A DNA stretch of 15,272 nt from a virus, in UHGV virus genome UHGV-0202386; one strand, 5' to 3'. The position numbers and the translations under genes were made by a program. Positions 304 to 14,080 of the stretch are shown in pieces. The notes under the pieces are model-generated. The model did no database searches, was not told where the DNA came from, and saw only the letters and a program-made list of their open reading frames with translations. Numbering within the stretch: position 1 is the stretch's first letter; each line of letters begins with the position of its first letter.

Positions 304-1533
304 GTGAGCAGAGCGCTTAACAAACTGAGCGATACATTGTTAAGAAAACTTTATGGTAAGCCAGCGGAGAAAAATACGTTCTATAGCGATGGCGGTAATC
401 TGAGCGTGAAATATTTAACATCAGGTAAATTGACCTGGTACTTCACCTACAGGGCTGGAACGGGAAGGGATACCACACCGGAACGCCTGAAGCTGGGAAA
501 CTATCCCGATCTGAGCCTTAAAGCAGCCAGGGAAAAAGCCGCAAAGTGTCGTGCATGGCTGGCAGAAGGGAAAAACCCACGTCATGAACTGAACTACACT
601 GTGCAGGAAGCGTTAAAACCCGTAACGGTTGGCGATGCGATCAGTTACTGGCTGGAAACGCACGTAAAGGAAAACCGTGTCGATTATGTATGCCTGAAAA
701 GTCGCCTGAATAATCACGTCATACAGCACATCGGTAACATGCCACTGGATAAATGCGAATTACGTCACTGGCTGGCCTGTTTTGACCGGATACGCAAAAA
801 ATCCCCCGTAACGTCTGGTCACATGATGCAGGCGTGTAAACAGGCGCTTAAGTTCTGCCGTAAACGTCGCTACGCAGTCAGTAACGTTCTGGATGATCTC
901 AACGTGGTGGACGTTGGCAAAAAGCCGGGCATAAGCGAACGCGTGCTTAGTAACAAAGAACTGGGCGAATTATTACAGGCGCTGGATAAAAAAATATTCC
1001 CGCCCTACTACAGCGCACTAATCCGCCTCCTGATTGTGTTTGGTTGCCGAACCGGAGAACTGAGGCTGTCGGAGATCAGGGAGTGGGATTTTAAGGAAAT
1101 GCTCTGGACAGTACCGAAGGAGCACAGCAAAACGAAGGTCGCCATATTCAGGCCAATACCGGAAAGCATTTTACCGTTTGTCACACGGCTGGTGGAGCAG
1201 AACCGACACACAGGGCTATTACTCGGGGAACTGAAACAGGAAGCCAGCGTGTCGCAATACGGCAGATTCACGCACAAAAAATTAAACCATCCGCACTGGT
1301 CACTACACGATATACGGCGCACGTTTACCACGATGCTGAATGATTTAGGCGTGGATCCGCATATTGTCGAACAACTCACCGCTCACCAGATGCCAGGGAT
1401 GCAGCGAGTCTATAACCACTCCCGTTATCTCGATGCGAAACGTAATGCGCTGGACATGTGGACAGAGCGGTTAGAGATACTGGCGGGTACTCACGAAAAC
1501 GTAACCACACTGCCAATAGCCAGAGAAATATAA
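304..1533 (+). CDS. int: Tyrosine recombinase / phage integrase (P4-type, with N-terminal arm-binding DUF4102-like region); GTG start
   Basis: 409-aa ORF. N-terminal pattern YSDGGNLSV..LTSGKLTWYFTYR...LKLGNYPDLSLKAAREKAAKCRAWLAEGKNP is typical of P4-family integrase arm domains. C-terminal catalytic signatures GCRTGELR, HWSLHDIRRTF, VYNHSRYLD. RBS-like GGGGGAG upstream of GTG 304. Sits next to attL. Confidence 0.9.
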   Translation: MSRALNKLSDTLLRKLYGKPAEKNTFYSDGGNLSVKYLTSGKLTWYFTYRAGTGRDTTPERLKLGNYPDLSLKAAREKAAKCRAWLAEGKNPRHELNYTVQEALKPVTVGDAISYWLETHVKENRVDYVCLKSRLNNHVIQHIGNMPLDKCELRHWLACFDRIRKKSPVTSGHMMQACKQALKFCRKRRYAVSNVLDDLNVVDVGKKPGISERVLSNKELGELLQALDKKIFPPYYSALIRLLIVFGCRTGELRLSEIREWDFKEMLWTVPKEHSKTKVAIFRPIPESILPFVTRLVEQNRHTGLLLGELKQEASVSQYGRFTHKKLNHPHWSLHDIRRTFTTMLNDLGVDPHIVEQLTAHQMPGMQRVYNHSRYLDAKRNALDMWTERLEILAGTHENVTTLPIAREI

Positions 1534-1871: not shown

Positions 1872-2075
1872 ATGACGGAGGCAATAGTGTTAAGCGCTGA
1901 TCGCTTTATACGTGAAAAAGAATGTCAGCAACTTACAGGCCTGAGCCGCTCATGTCGGTATCGCCTGGAGAAGACTGGACAATTCCCATCACGGCGTAAA
2001 CTCGGCGGTCGTTCCGTTGGCTGGTCTTTATCCGAAGTTCTGGCATGGAAGGACAGCCGCGAGGCAGTTCACTAA
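1872..2075 (+). CDS. alpA: AlpA-family phage transcriptional regulator / excisionase-like HTH protein
   Basis: Translation RFIREKECQQLTGLSRSCRYRLEKTGQFPSRRKLGGRSVGWSLSEVLAWK matches the AlpA/Phage_AlpA pattern (..GxSRSTIYRL...FP....LG.RSVGW..SEV..W). Alternative in-frame GTG start at 1887 is preceded by GGAGG at 1877-1881. Confidence 0.8.
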   Translation: MTEAIVLSADRFIREKECQQLTGLSRSCRYRLEKTGQFPSRRKLGGRSVGWSLSEVLAWKDSREAVH

Positions 2076-2081
2076 TCAGGC

Positions 2082-2100
2082 TGGCGGCGCACCGCCGCCA
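2082..2100 (+). other. GC-rich stem-loop (TGGCGGCG-CAC-CGCCGCCA) immediately 3' of alpA, with no U-tract
   Basis: Perfect 8-bp stem and 3-nt loop, seen directly. No T-run on either strand, so not a canonical intrinsic terminator. Confidence 0.5.
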
Positions 2101-2216
2101 CCCATCCACTAACACAGAGATCTAACCATGAATACTGGATATACGCCCGAACAGGGGCGGGGCTTCGTTCGTCCTGGTGAAACTAAAAAGCCATGTTATC
2201 GGGTATTTTCAGGCAT

Positions 2217-2287
2217 AAAAAAAGCGGCCCCGATAAGGAACCGCCTTTCTGAACAATTAACCTGCTGCGAAAAAAATGGATCAGTGC
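2217..2287 (-). ncRNA. Candidate small RNA of about 70 nt: extended -10 promoter to intrinsic terminator, in an ORF-free gap
   Basis: Minus-strand TGaTATAAT (plus 2294-2302) gives a predicted start near 2285-2287. Terminator hairpin at 2224-2248 (AAGGCGG..CCGCUU, about 11 bp with wobbles, 5-nt loop) is followed by U7 (plus A-run 2217-2223). No ORF of 60 aa or more on either strand here except the rejected long + frame. Confidence 0.3.
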
Positions 2288-2293
2288 AGGGGA

Positions 2294-2302
2294 ATTATAT
2301 CA
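2294..2302 (-). promoter_or_regulatory. Extended -10 promoter element TGaTATAAT (minus strand), no convincing -35
   Basis: Reverse complement of plus 2294-2302 reads TGATATAAT. Read directly. Confidence 0.35.
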
Positions 2303-2340
2303 ACCGTGTGGTGAAGCGCCACTATTGCCGGATAACAGGC

Positions 2341-2369
2341 AAAACAAAGGCGACCGCAAAAGGGTCGCC
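2341..2369 (-). terminator. Intrinsic terminator of the leftward RHH operon
   Basis: Perfect 7-bp stem GGCGACC/GGTCGCC (2349-2355 / 2363-2369) with 7-nt loop. On the minus strand it is followed by TTTGTTTTG (plus 2341-2348). Lies 66 nt downstream of the stop of ORF 2436-2609. Confidence 0.55.
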
Positions 2370-2435
2370 AGTGGGAACAAGGGAAAACAAAAGCATCACC
2401 AACAATGCCACATTTGCGGCTGGTGGGCAATGTGA

Positions 2436-2609
2436 TCAGTCAGATTTGGTTCGTTCCAAGGTTTGCAACGAGAGTTTTTTCCTGCGCTCTTTAAGGAATT
2501 TCTCAAGAGCAAACGAACAAGGTGCGAATCTTTCTGATTCATGCTCTATCTTTCTGCGCCGTCTTTTCCGTGTCGGTGATAATGTTTTGGTCAATTCTTT
2601 ATCGGTCAT
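2436..2609 (-). CDS. Hypothetical small basic protein (57 aa), second gene of the leftward operon
   Basis: ORF MTDKELTKTLSPTRKRRRRKIEHESERF..., AGGG 8 nt upstream of ATG 2609. An alternative ATG at 2624 has no RBS. A perfect 7-bp hairpin (2631-2637 / 2651-2657) separates it from the upstream gene. Supported mainly by the downstream terminator; no recognisable family. Confidence 0.35.
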   Translation of the reverse strand: MTDKELTKTLSPTRKRRRRKIEHESERFAPCSFALEKFLKERRKKLSLQTLERTKSD

Positions 2610-2666
2610 TGTGTTGCCCTGCATAGCAATGCGCCGTAATACCTTACACCACGGCGCTGGTGATGG

Positions 2667-2846
2667 TTACTCCTGCTCTTTGGCCTTGCGGCGCTGGCGG
2701 CGTTTGATCTCGCCTTGCATTGACGCAATGATGAATTGTGATGTGCTTTCGCCTGATTCTTTCACTGATTCCATGGCGTTTACTATTTCGTGTGGTACAC
2801 GAGCCTTTAGAGCTTGTGATTTTGCGTTTGTTGTACCCGTTGCCAT
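2667..2846 (-). CDS. Small ribbon-helix-helix (Arc/CopG-like) DNA-binding protein, candidate repressor of the divergent early promoter
   Basis: 59-aa ORF MATGTTNAKSQALKARVPHEIVNAMESVKESGESTSQFIIASMQGEIKRRQRRKAKEQE. By eye: beta strand (KARVP), helix, helix, basic tail. RBS AGAGGA upstream of ATG 2846. Faces a promoter overlapped by direct repeats. Confidence 0.65.
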   Translation of the reverse strand: MATGTTNAKSQALKARVPHEIVNAMESVKESGESTSQFIIASMQGEIKRRQRRKAKEQE

Positions 2847-2907
2847 TTCTATTCCTCTGTTGGATTGGTGGGGGACAGTATACACAGAAAAAGCACAAAT
2901 AAAACCC

Positions 2908-2948
2908 TTGACGTGGGCCACACCTAAAGCATATAGTGGGCCACACCT
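2908..2948 (+). promoter_or_regulatory. Rightward early promoter (-35 TTGACG 2908-2913, 18-bp spacer, -10 TATAGT 2932-2937) overlapped by two 13-bp direct-repeat operators GTGGGCCACACCT
   Basis: Repeat copies at 2913-2925 and 2936-2948 (perfect 13/13, 23-bp spacing), one over the -35/spacer and one over the -10/start. Sits in the divergent region between the RHH gene and the rightward ORF cluster. Confidence 0.5.
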
Positions 2949-2974
2949 TGAGATTGTCAAGGTGCATAAATGCA

Positions 2975-3009
2975 AAGCCCCGCAAGTGTCGTTACCACTC
3001 GCAGGGCTT
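2975..3009. other. Strong stem-loop in the 5' leader of the rightward operon; on the minus strand it reads as hairpin plus UUUGCAUUUAU
   Basis: AAGCCCCGCAAGTG (2975-2988) pairs with CACTCGCAGGGCTT (2996-3009) at 12 of 14 positions, 7-nt loop. No T-run on plus; T-rich tail on minus (plus 2961-2974). Confidence 0.5.
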
Positions 3010-3045
3010 CTAACCACCAACGATAGAAAGTGTATCGAGGTAGCT

Positions 3046-3252
3046 ATGAGAAATTATACCAGACACCCGCAAGGGCGGGACTCGTACAACCTGAATAAAT
3101 ACATCTGGCGTTTTATCGCCCTGAGCACGGCACAACCGCGCGTGATTACCATTGAGGCCACCAGCGAACAGGAAGCGCGTCAGCAATCTCCTGATGGCTG
3201 CGTGATGGTATTCGCTGCCCGTATTCGTCAGGGGGTACGCCATGTGCAATAA
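3046..3252 (+). CDS. Hypothetical protein (68 aa), first gene of the rightward early operon
   Basis: ATG 3046 preceded by GAGGT (3037-3041). Translation MRNYTRHPQGRDSYNLNKYIWRFIALSTAQPRVITIEATSEQEARQQSPDGCVMVFAARIRQGV. A vague resemblance to small Icd/Ash-like satellite proteins is my impression only. Confidence 0.6.
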   Translation: MRNYTRHPQGRDSYNLNKYIWRFIALSTAQPRVITIEATSEQEARQQSPDGCVMVFAARIRQGVRHVQ

Positions 3253-3938: not shown

Positions 3939-4238
3939 ATGAAACTTAAATATTCTGGCTTAACTGCCAGTGGCAACACTCACCCTAAATTTACGCGCGG
4001 CGATATTTACCGCGACCAGTACGGCGGCACGGTAATGATTAAGGGCGTGGAAGAACGGCGCGTAACCTACCGCCGTGAAGGTTACGAATATGATTGCGTG
4101 ATGCCTGTTTATCAGTTCCGGCGTGATTTTTCTCTGGTACAGACCGCGCCGCATAACGTGTCCACCAGCAACGCCAGGGCACGGGCAAACATCCAGAAGC
4201 TGAAAACCATGATTAACGGATTCAGGGGTAAAAAATGA
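3939..4238 (+). CDS. Hypothetical protein (99 aa), possibly DUF4222-like
   Basis: Motif YRDQYGGTVMIKGVEERRVTYRREGYEYDCVMPVYQFRRDF reminds me of DUF4222 proteins of enterobacterial prophages (memory only). Stop overlaps the primase start. Confidence 0.5.
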   Translation: MKLKYSGLTASGNTHPKFTRGDIYRDQYGGTVMIKGVEERRVTYRREGYEYDCVMPVYQFRRDFSLVQTAPHNVSTSNARARANIQKLKTMINGFRGKK

Positions 4239-6049
4239 AACTGGCACCGAACGTAAAACAGCAGTCACGCGGCATAAAACACAAAGAAACAGAAGTCATT
4301 ATTTTTGCGGGTAGTGATGCCTGGTCACACGCAAAACAATGGCAGGAACATGACGCGCGTATGGCCGGAGATAATGAGCCTCCTGTGTGGCTTGGGGAGC
4401 AGCAGTTATCCGAACTGGATAAGCTGCAAATTGTGCCGGAAGGCAGAAAATCCGTGCGCATATTCAGGGCCGGATATCTTGCGCCAGTAATGATAAAGGC
4501 GATTGGTCAGAAGCTGGCGGCGGCAGGCGTACAGGATGCAAATTTTTATCCTGAGGGTATGCACGGTCAGGAGGTGCAGAACTGGCGCGAATATCTGGCC
4601 CGTGAGCGCCAGAATCTTTCTGATGGTCTGGTGATTCAGCTTCCTGTTAAGAAAAAAACAGAAGACAGCGCCGCACCACTGGCGCTTAACCAGATGGGAG
4701 CAAGCCAGCGCGGCGAAGTTCTCCTGGCACATTATGGCGGTGAACTGGCGATTCATGCCGACTCTGACACTGTTCACCATTACAACGGCGTTGTATGGGA
4801 GCCGATTCAGGATAAAGAGTTACAGCGTGCTATGGCGCAGATTTTCATTGATGCGGAGATCAGCTATTCGCAGAACGCCATTAAATCGGCGGTCGATACC
4901 ATGAAGTTAAGTTTGCCTGTAATGGGGAATACAGCCCGTAACCTGATTGGATTCAGTAACGGGGTATTTGATACCAGAACAGGTAATTTTCGGGAGCATA
5001 ACAAAAACGACTGGTTGTTAATTGCCAGTGAATTACCTTTCAGCCCACCAGCAGAGGGGGAAACGCTGGCAACACATGCGCCGAATTTCTGGAAGTGGTT
5101 ACGCTGCTCGGTGGCAGAGAATGACCGCAAGACGGATCGCGTGCTGGCTGCATTATTCATGGTGCTGGCGAACCGGTACGACTGGCAGTTATTCATTGAG
5201 GTAACAGGTCCAGGGGGAAGTGGTAAAAGCGTGATGGCGGAGATTTGCACTATGCTGGCGGGTAAGGCCAACACAGTATCGGCAAGCATGAAGGCGCTGG
5301 AAGATGCAAGGGAACGCGCGTTAGTGGTTGGCTTTTCGCTGATTATCATGCCGGATATGACCCGCTACGCTGGTGATGGCGCAGGAATTAAGGCCATTAC
5401 AGGCGGTGACAAGGTGGCAATCGACCCGAAGCATAAAGCCCCCTACTCAACACGCATTCAGGCGGTCGTGCTGGCGGTGAACAATAACGCCATGTCATTC
5501 AGTGACCGCAGCGGGGGGATCTCACGTCGTCGGGTGATATTCAATTTTTCGGAGGTTGTACCGGAGAACGAGCGCGACCCCATGCTGGCAGAAAAAATAG
5601 AAGGAGAGCTGGCGGTTGTGATTCGCCATCTGCTTACTCGTTTTTCTGACCAGGACGAAGCTAAACGCCTGCTGTATGAGCAGCAGAAATCAGAAGAAGC
5701 TCTGGTGATAAAACGCGAGGGCGATTCGCTGGTGGACTTCTGTGGCTATCTCATGTCGTCGGTAATGTGTGATGGTCTGTTAGTGGGTAATGCCGAAATT
5801 ATTCCGTTCAGTCCGCGCAGGTATCTTTATCACGCCTATCTGGCATATATGAGGGCACACGGATTCGGTAAACCTGTAACACTGACGCGCTTCGGTAAAG
5901 ATATGCCGGGGGCAATGGCGGAATATGGCAGGGAGTATATAAAACGGAAAACGAAGCACGGTTTGCGTTCAAATGTGACACTGACAGAGGATTCAGAAGA
6001 CTGGATGCCATCATGTGCATCGGTCACAAATGACGACAGCAAAAATTAA
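4235..6049 (+). CDS. Replication initiator: P4-alpha-like primase / SF3 helicase (Walker A GPGGSGKS)
   Basis: 604-aa ORF. Walker A in VTGPGGSGKSVMAE, Walker B-like LIIMPDM, sensor AVVLAVNNN. Followed directly by TGTTCACC iterons, as for P4 alpha and its ori. Confidence 0.8.
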   Translation: MKLAPNVKQQSRGIKHKETEVIIFAGSDAWSHAKQWQEHDARMAGDNEPPVWLGEQQLSELDKLQIVPEGRKSVRIFRAGYLAPVMIKAIGQKLAAAGVQDANFYPEGMHGQEVQNWREYLARERQNLSDGLVIQLPVKKKTEDSAAPLALNQMGASQRGEVLLAHYGGELAIHADSDTVHHYNGVVWEPIQDKELQRAMAQIFIDAEISYSQNAIKSAVDTMKLSLPVMGNTARNLIGFSNGVFDTRTGNFREHNKNDWLLIASELPFSPPAEGETLATHAPNFWKWLRCSVAENDRKTDRVLAALFMVLANRYDWQLFIEVTGPGGSGKSVMAEICTMLAGKANTVSASMKALEDARERALVVGFSLIIMPDMTRYAGDGAGIKAITGGDKVAIDPKHKAPYSTRIQAVVLAVNNNAMSFSDRSGGISRRRVIFNFSEVVPENERDPMLAEKIEGELAVVIRHLLTRFSDQDEAKRLLYEQQKSEEALVIKREGDSLVDFCGYLMSSVMCDGLLVGNAEIIPFSPRRYLYHAYLAYMRAHGFGKPVTLTRFGKDMPGAMAEYGREYIKRKTKHGLRSNVTLTEDSEDWMPSCASVTNDDSKN

Positions 6050-7040: not shown

Positions 7041-7571
7041 ATGACAACGCTGACCATTAACCGGAAGCCGAAAGGCATTTACGGCACGCCGCAGAAAACG
7101 ACGCAGGCGGCGCAAGAGCAGGATAAAACCACATCGGTGCATAAAGTGATACCCGGCAATCAGAACGCACAGCAGAAGCCCACAGGGGCGACACCGTGGC
7201 AGCATATGACCAAAAGGCAGCGCAAAAACCGCCGACGCGTTAACCGCCTCACTGAGATGTGGCCTGACTTATTCAGCCATAAAGCACCGAAGCCGCTTAA
7301 GGTGGGGATATTCGACGACCTGATGCAGGATATCGCCGTCAGGGGGCTGGCATTCGGGTCGGGGGTATTACGTGCGACGCTGGCATCCTATGCGCAGTCT
7401 CCGCGCTATTACCGCGCCCTGATAGCTGGTGGCGCACGTTACGACCTGAAGGGCCAGCCATGTGGGGAAGTGACACCACAGGAACAGCAGGAGGCAGAAA
7501 CACGGCTGATGGTGCTGAATGAGAAGCACAAGCGCCAGCGCCGGGCAGCAAAGGGGGATACATGCCAGTGA
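7041..7571 (+). CDS. ProQ/FinO-domain RNA-binding protein (FinO-like RNA chaperone)
   Basis: PKPLKVGIFDDLMQDIAVRG...LRATLASYAQSPRYYRALIAGGARYDLKGQPCGEVTPQEQQEA aligns by eye to the ProQ/FinO core (PLKIGIFQDL...[35 protein letters not shown]). Lys/Gln-rich N-terminal extension. RBS AGGGGAAGG. Confidence 0.8.
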   Translation: MTTLTINRKPKGIYGTPQKTTQAAQEQDKTTSVHKVIPGNQNAQQKPTGATPWQHMTKRQRKNRRRVNRLTEMWPDLFSHKAPKPLKVGIFDDLMQDIAVRGLAFGSGVLRATLASYAQSPRYYRALIAGGARYDLKGQPCGEVTPQEQQEAETRLMVLNEKHKRQRRAAKGDTCQ

Positions 7572-11055: not shown

Positions 11056-11350
11056 AGCCAGAATTACACCTGATGAAGTCAGGGCACATCTTCGACTTGA
11101 TGATGATTTATCCGGTGAAGGCGAACTTCTGAAAATGTATACCGATGCGGCGCTGGAAGCCTGCCAGAAGCATATCGGGAAACGTTTTGAAGACGGGCTG
11201 GAATTTACCCCGGCAATGCGTGTTGGTTGCCTGATGTACATCGCTTTCCTGTACGAGAACCGGGAAGCGGTTTCACCAGTGGAGCAGTCTGAACTGCCTA
11301 TGGCTATTTCTGCGCTCTGGTCAGTTTATCGTGATGTAGGGGTGTACTGA
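11048..11350 (+). CDS. gp6-like head-tail connector (head completion/adaptor) protein
   Basis: 100 aa. MSEARITPDEVRAHLRLDDDLSGEGELLKMYTDAALEACQKHIGKRF matches the Phage_connect_1 N-terminal pattern (..HLRID.D.D...I......AA). Start overlaps the portal stop. Confidence 0.7.
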   Translation: MSEARITPDEVRAHLRLDDDLSGEGELLKMYTDAALEACQKHIGKRFEDGLEFTPAMRVGCLMYIAFLYENREAVSPVEQSELPMAISALWSVYRDVGVY

Positions 11351-11790
11351 TGCCGTGGCAACCATTAAGGCGATGCACTGAGCCGGGCTGTAATAAGCGC
11401 GTGAAGTCCGGCAAGTGTGAAGAGCACAGGCGGGCTGTATGGCGTGCAGAGGATGCCAGACGGGGACACCGCCGCGCGCGCGGGTATTCCCGACAGTGGG
11501 ACAAATACCGCGCCCTGTACCTGAGCAAAAACCCGTTATGCGTGCGTTGTCTGGCTAAGGGGATTTATACGCCAGCTCTTGTGGTGGATCACATCATCCC
11601 CATCAATGGCGGCGGTGATGTTCTCTTCTGGCCTGAGTGGAACCACCAGGCATTGTGCCAGACGTGCCACAACCGTAAGACGACACGGGAAGATCCAGCC
11701 ACGAAAGCGAACCGTAAGGCGGGCATGTATCGCGAGCAGGAAGAACGGGCAGCACACCGTAACGACTGGATGTATGGCGATGATGACTGA
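11350..11790 (+). CDS. Phage HNH endonuclease (terminase-associated)
   Basis: Cys-rich zinc finger (CTEPGCNKRVKSGKCEEH ... CVRC ... CQTCHNRKT) with VVDHIIPINGGGD..WNHQALC HNH core. Located immediately upstream of terS/terL, as in HK97-like cos phages. ATG overlaps the upstream stop (TGATG). Confidence 0.8.
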   Translation: MPWQPLRRCTEPGCNKRVKSGKCEEHRRAVWRAEDARRGHRRARGYSRQWDKYRALYLSKNPLCVRCLAKGIYTPALVVDHIIPINGGGDVLFWPEWNHQALCQTCHNRKTTREDPATKANRKAGMYREQEERAAHRNDWMYGDDD

Positions 11791-11959
11791 ACAGGAGCAA
11801 ACCAGGCTGATACGTGGACTGATAAGGCAGCGTGACTTATGGAAGACACAGGAGACAGGGCACAAAGCCAACAGGACAGGGCGCACAAAACGCACCACAG
11901 CGAAGCGATTAACCGACCGTGACCGCGAGGCCATGGAATGTTTTCGCAATCGCTGGTGA
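11780..11959 (+). CDS. Doubtful small basic ORF (about 59 aa) overlapping the HNH stop; may instead be non-coding cos DNA
   Basis: ATG-ATG at 11780/11783, no clear RBS. Arg/Lys/Thr-rich low-complexity translation. Confidence 0.2.
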   Translation: MMTEQEQTRLIRGLIRQRDLWKTQETGHKANRTGRTKRTTAKRLTDRDREAMECFRNRW

Positions 11960-12078
11960 GGCCGTCAGAGGGGGTGGGGGTGGTTTTCAGGACGAAACCG
12001 TCCCTGCCGGACACCGACCGCCTCCTCAAATTTTTGTGCACGGGAATTTTTTTGAAAATAATTGGGCGAAAAAAGAAC
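11791..12078 (+). other. Candidate cos/packaging-recognition region between HNH and terS, containing a G-rich tract
   Basis: 288-bp gap without a convincing gene. GGGGGTGGGGGTGG at 11970-11983 followed by a CAGGACG-AAAC-CGTCCCTG hairpin. Location argument: in HK97-like phages cos lies between the HNH gene and terS. Confidence 0.3.
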
Positions 12079-12435
12079 ATGGCAAGACCACCAAAAGCCC
12101 CCGCTTACCTGGATGAAATCGCGGTCAGGCAGTGGAAGGAAAAATCGCGCCAGCTTTCCGGACGGGAAGACCTTACCCCCGCCGACTGGAGCAATCTGGA
12201 GCTGTATTGTGTTAACTACTCCATATACCGCAAAGCCGTCGAAGACCTTGCCACGCGCGGGTTCAGCATTGTTAACAGTCAGGGCAGCGAGAGCAGAAAC
12301 CCCGCCCTGAGCGCAAAGGCTGACGCTGAAAGAATAATGATCAAAATGGCTTCTTTGCTGGGTTTTGACCCGGTAAGTCGCCGCAGAAATCCACCGGAAA
12401 CAGAGGAAGAGGACGAGCTTGACCGCCTGGCATGA
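12079..12435 (+). CDS. terS: Terminase small subunit, P27 family
   Basis: MARPPKAPAYLDEIAVRQWKEK...LELYCVNYSIYRKAVEDL...GSESRNPALSAKADAERIMIKMASLLGFDPVSRRR matches the P27-family TerS pattern. The ORF-track N-terminal extension (from 11938) has no support. Confidence 0.75.
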   Translation: MARPPKAPAYLDEIAVRQWKEKSRQLSGREDLTPADWSNLELYCVNYSIYRKAVEDLATRGFSIVNSQGSESRNPALSAKADAERIMIKMASLLGFDPVSRRRNPPETEEEDELDRLA

Positions 12436-14080
12436 GTACGCAGAAGGCGTAAAAAACGGCAAAATTACGGCCTGTAAACGACTGAAACAGGCCGTTAAAC
12501 GGTATTTTTCTGACCTTGAAAACCCCCTTTACACGTTCGATCCGGAGGTCGTGGAGCGGTTTATTGCCTTTTCCAGGGTGTGTCCGCACGTAAAAGGCGC
12601 AATGCGCGGTAGCCCCATTGAGCTGGAGCCGTGGCAGCAGTTCGCCTTTGCGTGCATCCTGGGCTTTAAGGTTAAGGCCACCGGACGGCGCAAATACACC
12701 AGCGCATTCATTGAAGTGCCGCGAAAAAATGCCAAATCCACGGTCGCCGCTATCCTGGCTAACTGGTTTCTGGTTATGGAAAACGGGCAGCAGGATATTT
12801 ACACCGCCGCTGTGAGTCGTGATCAGGCGCGGATCGTGTTTGATGATGCGCGTCAGATGTGCCTTTTATCCCGACCGTTACGAAAGCGGGTAAATATTCA
12901 GGCACACAAGGTGATACACCCGAAAACCAACAGCCTGTTAAAGCCACTGGCAGCAAAAGCGGCAACCATTGAAGGTACAAACCCGAGTCTTGCCATTGTG
13001 GATGAATATCACCTGCACCCTGACAACGGGGTTTATTCCGCGCTTGAACTGGGAATGGGGGCGCGTCCGGAGGGGCTGTTATTTGCCATCACCACATCGG
13101 GGAGCAACGTTGTTTCAGCCTGTAAACAACACTATGACTATTGCTGCCAGATACTGGATGGTGAAGAGGTGAACGAATCCATGTTCGTGCTGATTTACGA
13201 GCTGGATGATGAAAGCGAGGTTGACGATCCGGCGATGTGGATAAAGGCGAATCCCAATATCGATGTTTCCGTCGATCGTGAAAAACTGGCCTCAACCATC
13301 CAGAAAGCGCGGGGTATTCCGTCGCAGTGGGTGGAAATGCTCACCAAGCGATTCAATATCTGGTGTCAGGGGGCTACGCCGTGGATGGGTAACGGTGCAT
13401 GGGCGGAGTGCGCCGGAACGTTCGCGGAGGCGGATTTATACGGTCAGGAGTGCTACGCGGGGCTGGACTTATCATCAACCAGCGATATTTCCAGCGTGTG
13501 CTATGCCTTTCCGGTCGGTAAAAAGATTATGCTGGTTTCCCGTCACTATCTGCCGGAATTTCAGCTACAGAACCCCGCCAATAAAAACCGCGCCATCTAT
13601 CGCCAGTGGGTAAAGGCGGGCTGGATACGCACAACACCGGGTGACTGCATTGATTATGACCGTATCCGTGATGACATCATGGCGGATGCAGAGAATTTCA
13701 ATATCAGGCTGGTGGGCTTCGATACATGGAACGCCACGCACCTGAGGACGCAGCTACAGGGGGCAGGATTTGAGGTGGAGCCGTTCCCGCAAACATACCT
13801 TCGTTTCAGTCCGGCGGCGAAATCGTTCGAAGTTTTTGTTAACCGGAAGGTGATTGTGCATCGTGGCGATCCGGTGCTGGCCTGGTCAATGAGTAATGTT
13901 GTGATGCAGAGTGACGCGAACGCCAATATCAAGCCGAACAAGAAAAAATCATCCAACAAGATAGACCCGAGCGTTGCGGCTCTGATGGCGTTTGGCACAT
14001 TCCAGGCAGAACATGAGGAATTTGCATTTGATATAAGCGACAGCCACAAAGAGCGGCTTGCGGCGTTTGATGGGGTATGA
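12419..14080 (+). CDS. terL: Terminase large subunit (Terminase_1-like ATPase/nuclease); apparent TTG start overlapping terS by 17 nt
   Basis: 553 aa. Size, position after terS and a conserved-looking N-terminal region (PWQQFAFACILGFKV..., DIYTAAVSRDQARIVFDDAR). No in-frame ATG until codon 62; GAGGA at 12408-12412 precedes TTG 12419. Confidence 0.85.
   Translation: MTAWHEYAEGVKNGKITACKRLKQAVKRYFSDLENPLYTFDPEVVERFIAFSRVCPHVKGAMRGSPIELEPWQQFAFACILGFKVKATGRRKYTSAFIEVPRKNAKSTVAAILANWFLVMENGQQDIYTAAVSRDQARIVFDDARQMCLLSRPLRKRVNIQAHKVIHPKTNSLLKPLAAKAATIEGTNPSLAIVDEYHLHPDNGVYSALELGMGARPEGLLFAITTSGSNVVSACKQHYDYCCQILDGEEVNESMFVLIYELDDESEVDDPAMWIKANPNIDVSVDREKLASTIQKARGIPSQWVEMLTKRFNIWCQGATPWMGNGAWAECAGTFAEADLYGQECYAGLDLSSTSDISSVCYAFPVGKKIMLVSRHYLPEFQLQNPANKNRAIYRQWVKAGWIRTTPGDCIDYDRIRDDIMADAENFNIRLVGFDTWNATHLRTQLQGAGFEVEPFPQTYLRFSPAAKSFEVFVNRKVIVHRGDPVLAWSMSNVVMQSDANANIKPNKKKSSNKIDPSVAALMAFGTFQAEHEEFAFDISDSHKERLAAFDGV

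Follow-up and report, generated by a model that had tools for sequence, protein, structure and literature searches.

The window, that is the whole stretch of 15,272 nt that was analysed, represents a phage-inducible chromosomal island (PICI) of E. coli, one of those PICIs that carry capsid genes of their own. The rightward genes include int (304-1533, plus strand), alpA (1872-2075, plus strand, Pfam Phage_AlpA 3.4e-18) encoding the island activator, whose activator role is described in PMC6092414, an icd-like gene, ssb, and a gene for a D5/P4-type primase (4235-6049, plus strand). The FinO-domain protein pointed out in an earlier note on this DNA is real, and is encoded by 7041-7571 on the plus strand (FinO/ProQ domain, Pfam ProQ 4.8e-24). 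Capsid, prohead protease, portal, head-tail connector and HNH-motif proteins are annotated in the identical region of strain 2014EL-1345-2, and positions 2076-2440 of the window are 100% identical to the chromosome of that strain. The same layout is found in the prototype islands of CFT073 and EDL933. In the best-matching genome (L001) a DUF927 replication protein of 707 aa (11164-13287) replaces the 604-aa D5-type primase of the window, showing that the islands are mosaic despite an identical regulatory region.

Two genes on the minus strand constitute a leftward operon between alpA and the icd-like gene. One encodes a basic protein of 62 aa (2436-2624, PHROG phrog_21027, 2e-13), and the other belongs to the YlcI/YnfO family (2667-2846, NCBIfam NF041551, 1e-18, and annotated as such by PGAP); the product of the latter appears to be ribbon-helix-helix-like and is a candidate repressor. 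The operon ends at a separate terminator, T1 (2349-2369, minus strand), detected by a terminator scan, and is probably transcribed from the second perfect extended -10 of the window (TGGTATAAT, 3053-3061, minus strand), which is located within icd codons 2-5 and faces a promoter-like site before icd (2908-2937, plus strand, TTGACG-18-TATAGT). Together with its repeats this site spans 2908-2948: two exact and operator-like direct repeats of GTGGGCCACACCT, at 2913-2925 and 2936-2948, overlap the -35 region and the -10/+1 region respectively, and each copy contains the palindrome GTGGGCCAC. An analogous pair of repeats is located at 4551-4567 and 4586-4602 in the related locus L005. The icd 5' leader contains a long imperfect hairpin (GCCCCGCAAGTG ... 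CACTCGCAGGGC, 2965-3015, plus strand) that is also present in L005. Directly 3' of the alpA stop codon there is a G+C-rich hairpin without a U tract (GGCTGGCGGCG / CGCCGCCACCC, 2079-2103, plus strand), which L002 and L005 retain with loops of other sequence.

A short leftward transcription unit, convergent with alpA, is predicted between alpA and T1. The transcript should be about 70 nt long, with a start near g2287 and its 3' end in a U7 tract (2217-2287, minus strand), as judged from the positions of a -10 element and a terminator. The extended -10 that had been reported on the minus strand (TGaTATAAT, about 70 nt 5' of a hairpin with U7) is found as TGATATAAT at 2302-2294, where it forms the predicted promoter of the upstream type that we call class A, with a poor -35 region (GTGGCG). 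Sites of the form TGNTATAAT occur twice in the 15 kb, against 0.42 expected, and both are on the minus strand in the regulatory region. The leftward operon ends at T1, 105 nt upstream of the hairpin of the candidate RNA, and the candidate should therefore be a transcription unit of its own in this island.

The putative intrinsic terminator (2217-2248, minus strand) consists of an A tract, an 8-bp G+C stem, the loop UUAUC and the U7 tail, as indicated by pairing and fold energies. In the stem 2244-2237 pairs with 2231-2224 (g2244-c2224 to c2237-g2231), including two G.U pairs and leaving 2236-2232 as the loop, and it is lengthened by A/U pairs of 2245-2248 with 2223-2220, so that it runs into the tail at 2223-2217. 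The simple consensus terminator scan that found the leftward terminator at 2369-2349 missed this hairpin (2244-2224), probably because its stem continues into the T tract. The predicted RNA has a folding energy of -20.4 kcal/mol (z = -2.6), and its first ~45 nt are unpaired in the structure prediction. They include the conserved core CGCAGCAGGUUAAUUGUUCAG (2249-2269, minus strand), recognized from alignments and predicted to be single-stranded in both the MFE and the centroid structure.

The hairpin is suited to one strand. In the window the stem has -16.7 kcal/mol in the minus sense and -9.1 in the plus sense, and in 15 of 15 variants the minus-sense fold is more stable by 2.5-8.5 kcal/mol, because the G.U pairs turn into C.A mismatches in the plus sense. 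The stem occurs in three sequence types; 98.7% of the cells are paired, and at three pairs both partners have changed. The G+C hairpin followed by a U tract on the predicted transcribed strand thus shows covariation, with a score of 0.268 against 0.139 in shuffled alignments and none of 500 shuffles reaching 0.268, in an alignment that had been fitted to the structure of the model.

DNA matching positions 2205-2312 of the window is present in 1091 of 5426 complete E. coli genomes, about a fifth, including CFT073 and EDL933. The 3' module, 63 nt corresponding to 2212-2274, was found in 75 of 79 loci compared, 77 of which are relatives of the island family. A covariance model built on it scores 89 bits in the window and, in each of 45 related islands, picks out a single strong copy with no second one; the region is thus conserved in related elements, where its absence had been named in advance as evidence against the RNA. 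The module, located at 6294-6400 in L002 and at 4007-4100 in L005, is always convergent with alpA or with an ant-like gene, and the most conserved bases are those of the A tract, the stem and the T tract. Recombination has its breakpoints where the U tail ends and immediately 5' of the core. The module is thus passed on whole, combined with four or more different left flanks. The relatives are E. coli, Shigella, or IMG/VR contigs of unstated host and are closely related, so that part of this conservation is shared ancestry. A scan of genome contigs with AlpA gave at least three loci. The module is also present in four plasmid records, and it had no match in 50,697 phage genomes. With Rfam at gathering thresholds the whole window gave zero matches, including to C4 antisense RNA, IsrK, sar and FinP, and at E values up to 10 only terminator-driven noise appeared (Atu_C8 17.6 bits, sbrA 15 bits).

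The sequence upstream of the core falls into classes that cannot be aligned with one another, with promoter-like elements TGaTATAAT (window type), TTGCCC-17-TATCAT (O157 type), GCTATAAT, GCTACAAT and GCTAAAAT. A -10 hexamer is nevertheless located 23-35 nt 5' of the conserved core in at least three unrelated upstream contexts, and the estimated chance of such a hexamer within a 13-nt span is ~0.04 per independent class. A putative σ70 element is in this way placed to yield a short transcript, as would be expected of a small RNA gene with its own promoter. In the class B RNAs a palindrome, TGATAGCgGCTATCA, overlaps the -10 (TATCAT; L005 ~4095-4112) directly 3' of the stop codon of the 62-aa gene, and may be an operator for the class B RNA promoter.

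The hairpin might be a terminator and nothing else, ending the leftward repressor operon and insulating alpA and int against antisense transcription, with incidental -10 elements and any short RNA being functionless. This would agree with the concentration of the conserved bases in the A tract, stem and T tract and with the tandem terminator, T1, that the window carries upstream, and in class B islands the leftward operon itself terminates at the hairpin, no other terminator lying between it and the 62-aa gene. Classes A and E, however, keep the module with its -10 although their operon has its own terminator, and the hexamer recurs at the same distance in the unrelated contexts described above. 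In addition, TGATATAA is invariant in 17 of 17 distinct class A variants, with the final T in 16 of 17, in the midst of variable flanks (L014 has a natural T2294C change), and the core, which lies 5' of the hairpin, moves with the module across recombination breakpoints. We therefore regard a mere terminator as unlikely, if still a reading of some weight. The strand-specific stem, the compensatory changes and the -10 in unrelated contexts instead give good comparative support to the short leftward RNA beside alpA, with its own promoter and intrinsic terminator, that was proposed in the earlier note, and as far as sequence can tell the locus is an unannotated, conserved small-RNA module.

The same note had suggested that this RNA could be a partner of the FinO-domain protein in induction or helper interference. 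Read in this way, it would be an RNA acting in trans on helper-phage or host mRNAs with the help of that protein, or of host ProQ or Hfq. The window does encode a FinO-domain protein, the core is predicted to be single-stranded, and the A-rich 5' flank of the terminator pairs with the U tail, leaving a short free tail; a terminator of this kind presumably resembles ProQ ligands. The two genes are not co-inherited, however, since the module DNA is present in 1091 E. coli genomes and the FinO gene in 279, and strict co-occurrence is ruled out by these counts and by the islands themselves: among 54 module-bearing islands with enough DNA the FinO gene is missing from 49, being an accessory gene of a minority (5/54). 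The CFT073 island has the RNA without an annotated FinO gene within 6 kb, and conversely the FinO-bearing island L177 is without the module. In the other direction, 50 of 57 FinO-bearing islands have the module, and it is of class A, C, D or E but never B (Fisher p = 0.004, uncorrected for relatedness). The absence of class B is a weak lead for a FinO link, as the association of the FinO gene with RNA class is confounded by relatedness. Target prediction by duplex folding over both strands of the window, as had been recommended, gave a best non-cis site of -40.2 kcal/mol, within the range of the shuffled controls (mean -36, minimum -44.7), so that only the cis site outdoes shuffled sequence in pairing within the window. 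The lack of a match among the phage genomes searched likewise speaks against this reading, and a FinO-dependent RNA acting in trans appears improbable.

The more surprising feature is a stop-free frame on the plus strand (2128-3252), which we call the leader. The gap had been described as having no credible open reading frame, but from the ATG at 2128 to 3252 this frame runs for 374 codons through the whole interval without a single stop, where the other plus frames have 20 and 23. It begins with an ant-like start and ~30 codons, continues for 250 codons without a family match and ends with an icd-like domain (3100-3237). On its way it crosses the RNA gene and both leftward terminators, runs antisense to the two leftward genes, with third codon positions of both strands coinciding, and then passes through the promoter region to enter icd in frame. 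In some relatives a complete ant-like gene of 266 aa starts at ATG 2128, and in the window this gene has been deleted in frame after ~30 codons. CFT073-type islands have a BRO-N/antirepressor remnant of ~200 nt between alpA and the module, in frame with the leader (L002 6102-6300; L003 2757-3284).

The frame is preserved while the DNA in it is exchanged. In 172 related loci it continues through icd in 97 and ends at most 250 nt from the icd domain in 56, together 153 of 172, and in the examples checked the leader stop is 9-26 nt before the icd ATG; the leader is thus placed for coupling to the downstream icd. The intervening DNA constitutes 21 sequence clusters. In 14 of these every member is open in the icd frame, while the other frames contain 9-30 stops. 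Unrelated cassettes replace one another in the middle, and the length of the leader varies from 175 to 606 codons in relatives (for example L017 1416-3236 and L176 3448-4968), indicating that many indels have kept the frame. A frame that remains open although its sequence may vary freely suggests that translation as such is under selection.

The position of the start of the leader relative to the RNA differs between islands. In three compact classes of relatives its SD and ATG are separated from the antisense RNA 3' end by 6-30 nt, and in islands with another alpA allele and without the module the SD and ATG lie directly before another leftward terminator, so that where the RNA module is missing a terminator of the T1 type adjoins the leader start codon. 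For the RNA of the window the complementary stretch is leader codons 30-54. The RNA 3' end lies 87 nt downstream of the leader ATG, and direct occlusion of the ribosome site would thus not operate there.

The frame could also be nothing more than a protein gene on the plus strand, a 374-aa ORF of which the interval is a part and the minus-strand features by-products. It is open and kept through many indels, the same start codon serves a genuine ant-like gene in relatives, and PGAP (NCBI) annotates it, calling it in related genomes a pseudogene, a hypothetical protein or an oversized Icd-like protein. Residues 1-290, on the other hand, match none of Pfam, NCBIfam and PHROG, only the last ~85 residues, the icd domain, having a match, and a real protein family was rejected for the lack of matches beyond that domain. 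A protein gene would also have to accept a middle exchanged among unrelated cassettes with lengths of 175-606 codons and an overlap with two minus-strand genes whose families are recognised, and it would leave the G.U pairs that favour the minus-sense fold unexplained. Since the frame ends just before icd in 56 loci, a fusion protein is not required. This explanation is very improbable in our view.

The reading that we prefer, to which we give somewhat less than an even chance, is that the module encodes a cis-antisense RNA that blocks translation of the leader and in this way lowers what alpA read-through transcripts contribute to the expression of icd and the replication genes. Rightward transcripts from the AlpA-activated alpA promoter would get past the hairpin with its weak plus-sense fold, and leader translation would be required for them to extend into icd and the primase operon, because translation presumably keeps Rho and the hairpins from halting the transcripts. 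The small RNA, and with it the 3' end of the leftward operon mRNA, would pair with the leader, and the pairing would stop its translation or trigger cleavage. Basal read-through would thereby be cut short and the island kept silent, until a helper phage turns on alpA and rightward transcription outpaces the antisense RNA. The earlier idea of an RNA-based switch for induction fits the position of the RNA, antisense to the 5' part of the stop-free frame between alpA and icd with the replication genes; the partnership with the FinO-domain protein finds no support in co-inheritance. In EcCICFT073, reporter fusions after the alpA stop codon and at ORF3 were AlpA-dependent, AlpA expression alone induced the island, and such islands have no known repressor (PMC6092414). 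A promoter-like site with operator-like repeats directly precedes icd, and icd need not rely on alpA read-through. The wider proposal, that Gram-negative PICIs are silenced by an RNA device in which the antisense RNA and the 3' end of the leftward mRNA stop leader translation, the frame being stop-free solely for translation across the antisense operon so as to license alpA read-through to icd and the replication genes, is tentative, and we see it as a possibility of clearly lower probability than the local one.

The proposed mechanism follows the logic of P1 c4/icd, P4 CI, hok/sok and CopA/tap, but with an opposite-strand RNA and a very long leader. In phages P1 and P7 the C4 immunity RNA is small, acts on a leader upstream of an icd- or kil-type gene and causes premature termination, which shuts off early or replication genes. 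In the satellite phage P4 the CI immunity RNA likewise shuts off such genes by premature termination via a leader (summarised in PMC4825925). The islands share with these systems an icd-like first downstream gene and a P4-like primase. C4 and CI, by contrast, are cut from the leader transcript of the same strand and pair upstream and downstream, whereas the RNA described here would be transcribed from the other strand, between a promoter and a terminator of its own; no matching repeats of the C4/CI type were found in the window, and the Rfam C4 model had no match. A 15-nt sequence (ACACACACAAACGGC) occurs both in class B RNAs and in the 5' part of the icd coding sequence, the two copies forming a perfect inverted repeat in the DNA (L005 4064-4078 and 4724-4738). 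It was considered as a second pairing site and rejected, being present in 16 loci but missing from classes A and C and wherever icd is of another allele.

In hok/mok/sok and in CopA/tap/repA of R1 a cis-antisense RNA of ~65-90 nt blocks a leader ORF whose translation is needed by the downstream gene. In compact relatives the leader ATG likewise lies close to the predicted antisense RNA, and the leaders end 9-26 nt before the icd ATG or are fused to it, but with 175-606 codons they run antisense through the whole leftward operon, and the RNA of the window pairs with codons 30-54 and not with the ribosome site. OOP of lambda and Sar of P22 are short leftward antisense RNAs of phage regulatory regions, with their own promoter and intrinsic terminator; OOP targets the 3' end of cII and Sar the ribosome site of ant, and the P22 immI region pairs an antirepressor gene with ribbon-helix-helix regulators. 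Some of the islands carry an ant-like gene as immI does, but here the partner would be a long leader frame, and there is no sequence or Rfam similarity to OOP or Sar. As in the FinP/FinO system of F-like plasmids, the element of the window encodes a candidate antisense RNA ended by a terminator hairpin and a FinO-domain protein, but the two are not inherited jointly across islands, and the Rfam FinP model had no match. A regulatory small RNA of a phage satellite has been described in the Vibrio cholerae satellite PLE, where SviR acts in trans on phage and satellite transcripts (bioRxiv 10.1101/2022.04.08.487710); host, satellite family and sequence are unrelated to those studied here.

Literature searches for PICIs and small RNAs, for the core sequence and for PICIs and FinO gave no description of the RNA or of a transcript. 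Esr41 was considered as the candidate RNA and rejected, as it is located in a different island, SpLE1, and the Pas RNAs are described as coming from prophages, likely Stx phages. The part consulted of the table of EHEC Hfq-bound orphan sRNAs (EcOnc) lists nothing at the module locus, and the name SpLE2, which we tentatively equate with the EHEC island, is absent from the EcOnc supplement.

The module is most likely a cis-antisense regulator placed at the entry of the alpA-to-icd leader. These islands have previously been drawn as transcribed rightward only, and about a fifth of the complete E. coli genomes carry the conserved leftward module described here, with a repressor-like operon, a predicted small RNA and strand-specific terminators. 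If the RNA alone is real, an unannotated small RNA family would be added to pathogenic E. coli. If the model is true, it would provide a concrete and mutable switch for the induction of a phage satellite, and the leader would be a rare case of a frame kept open for its translation and not for its product.
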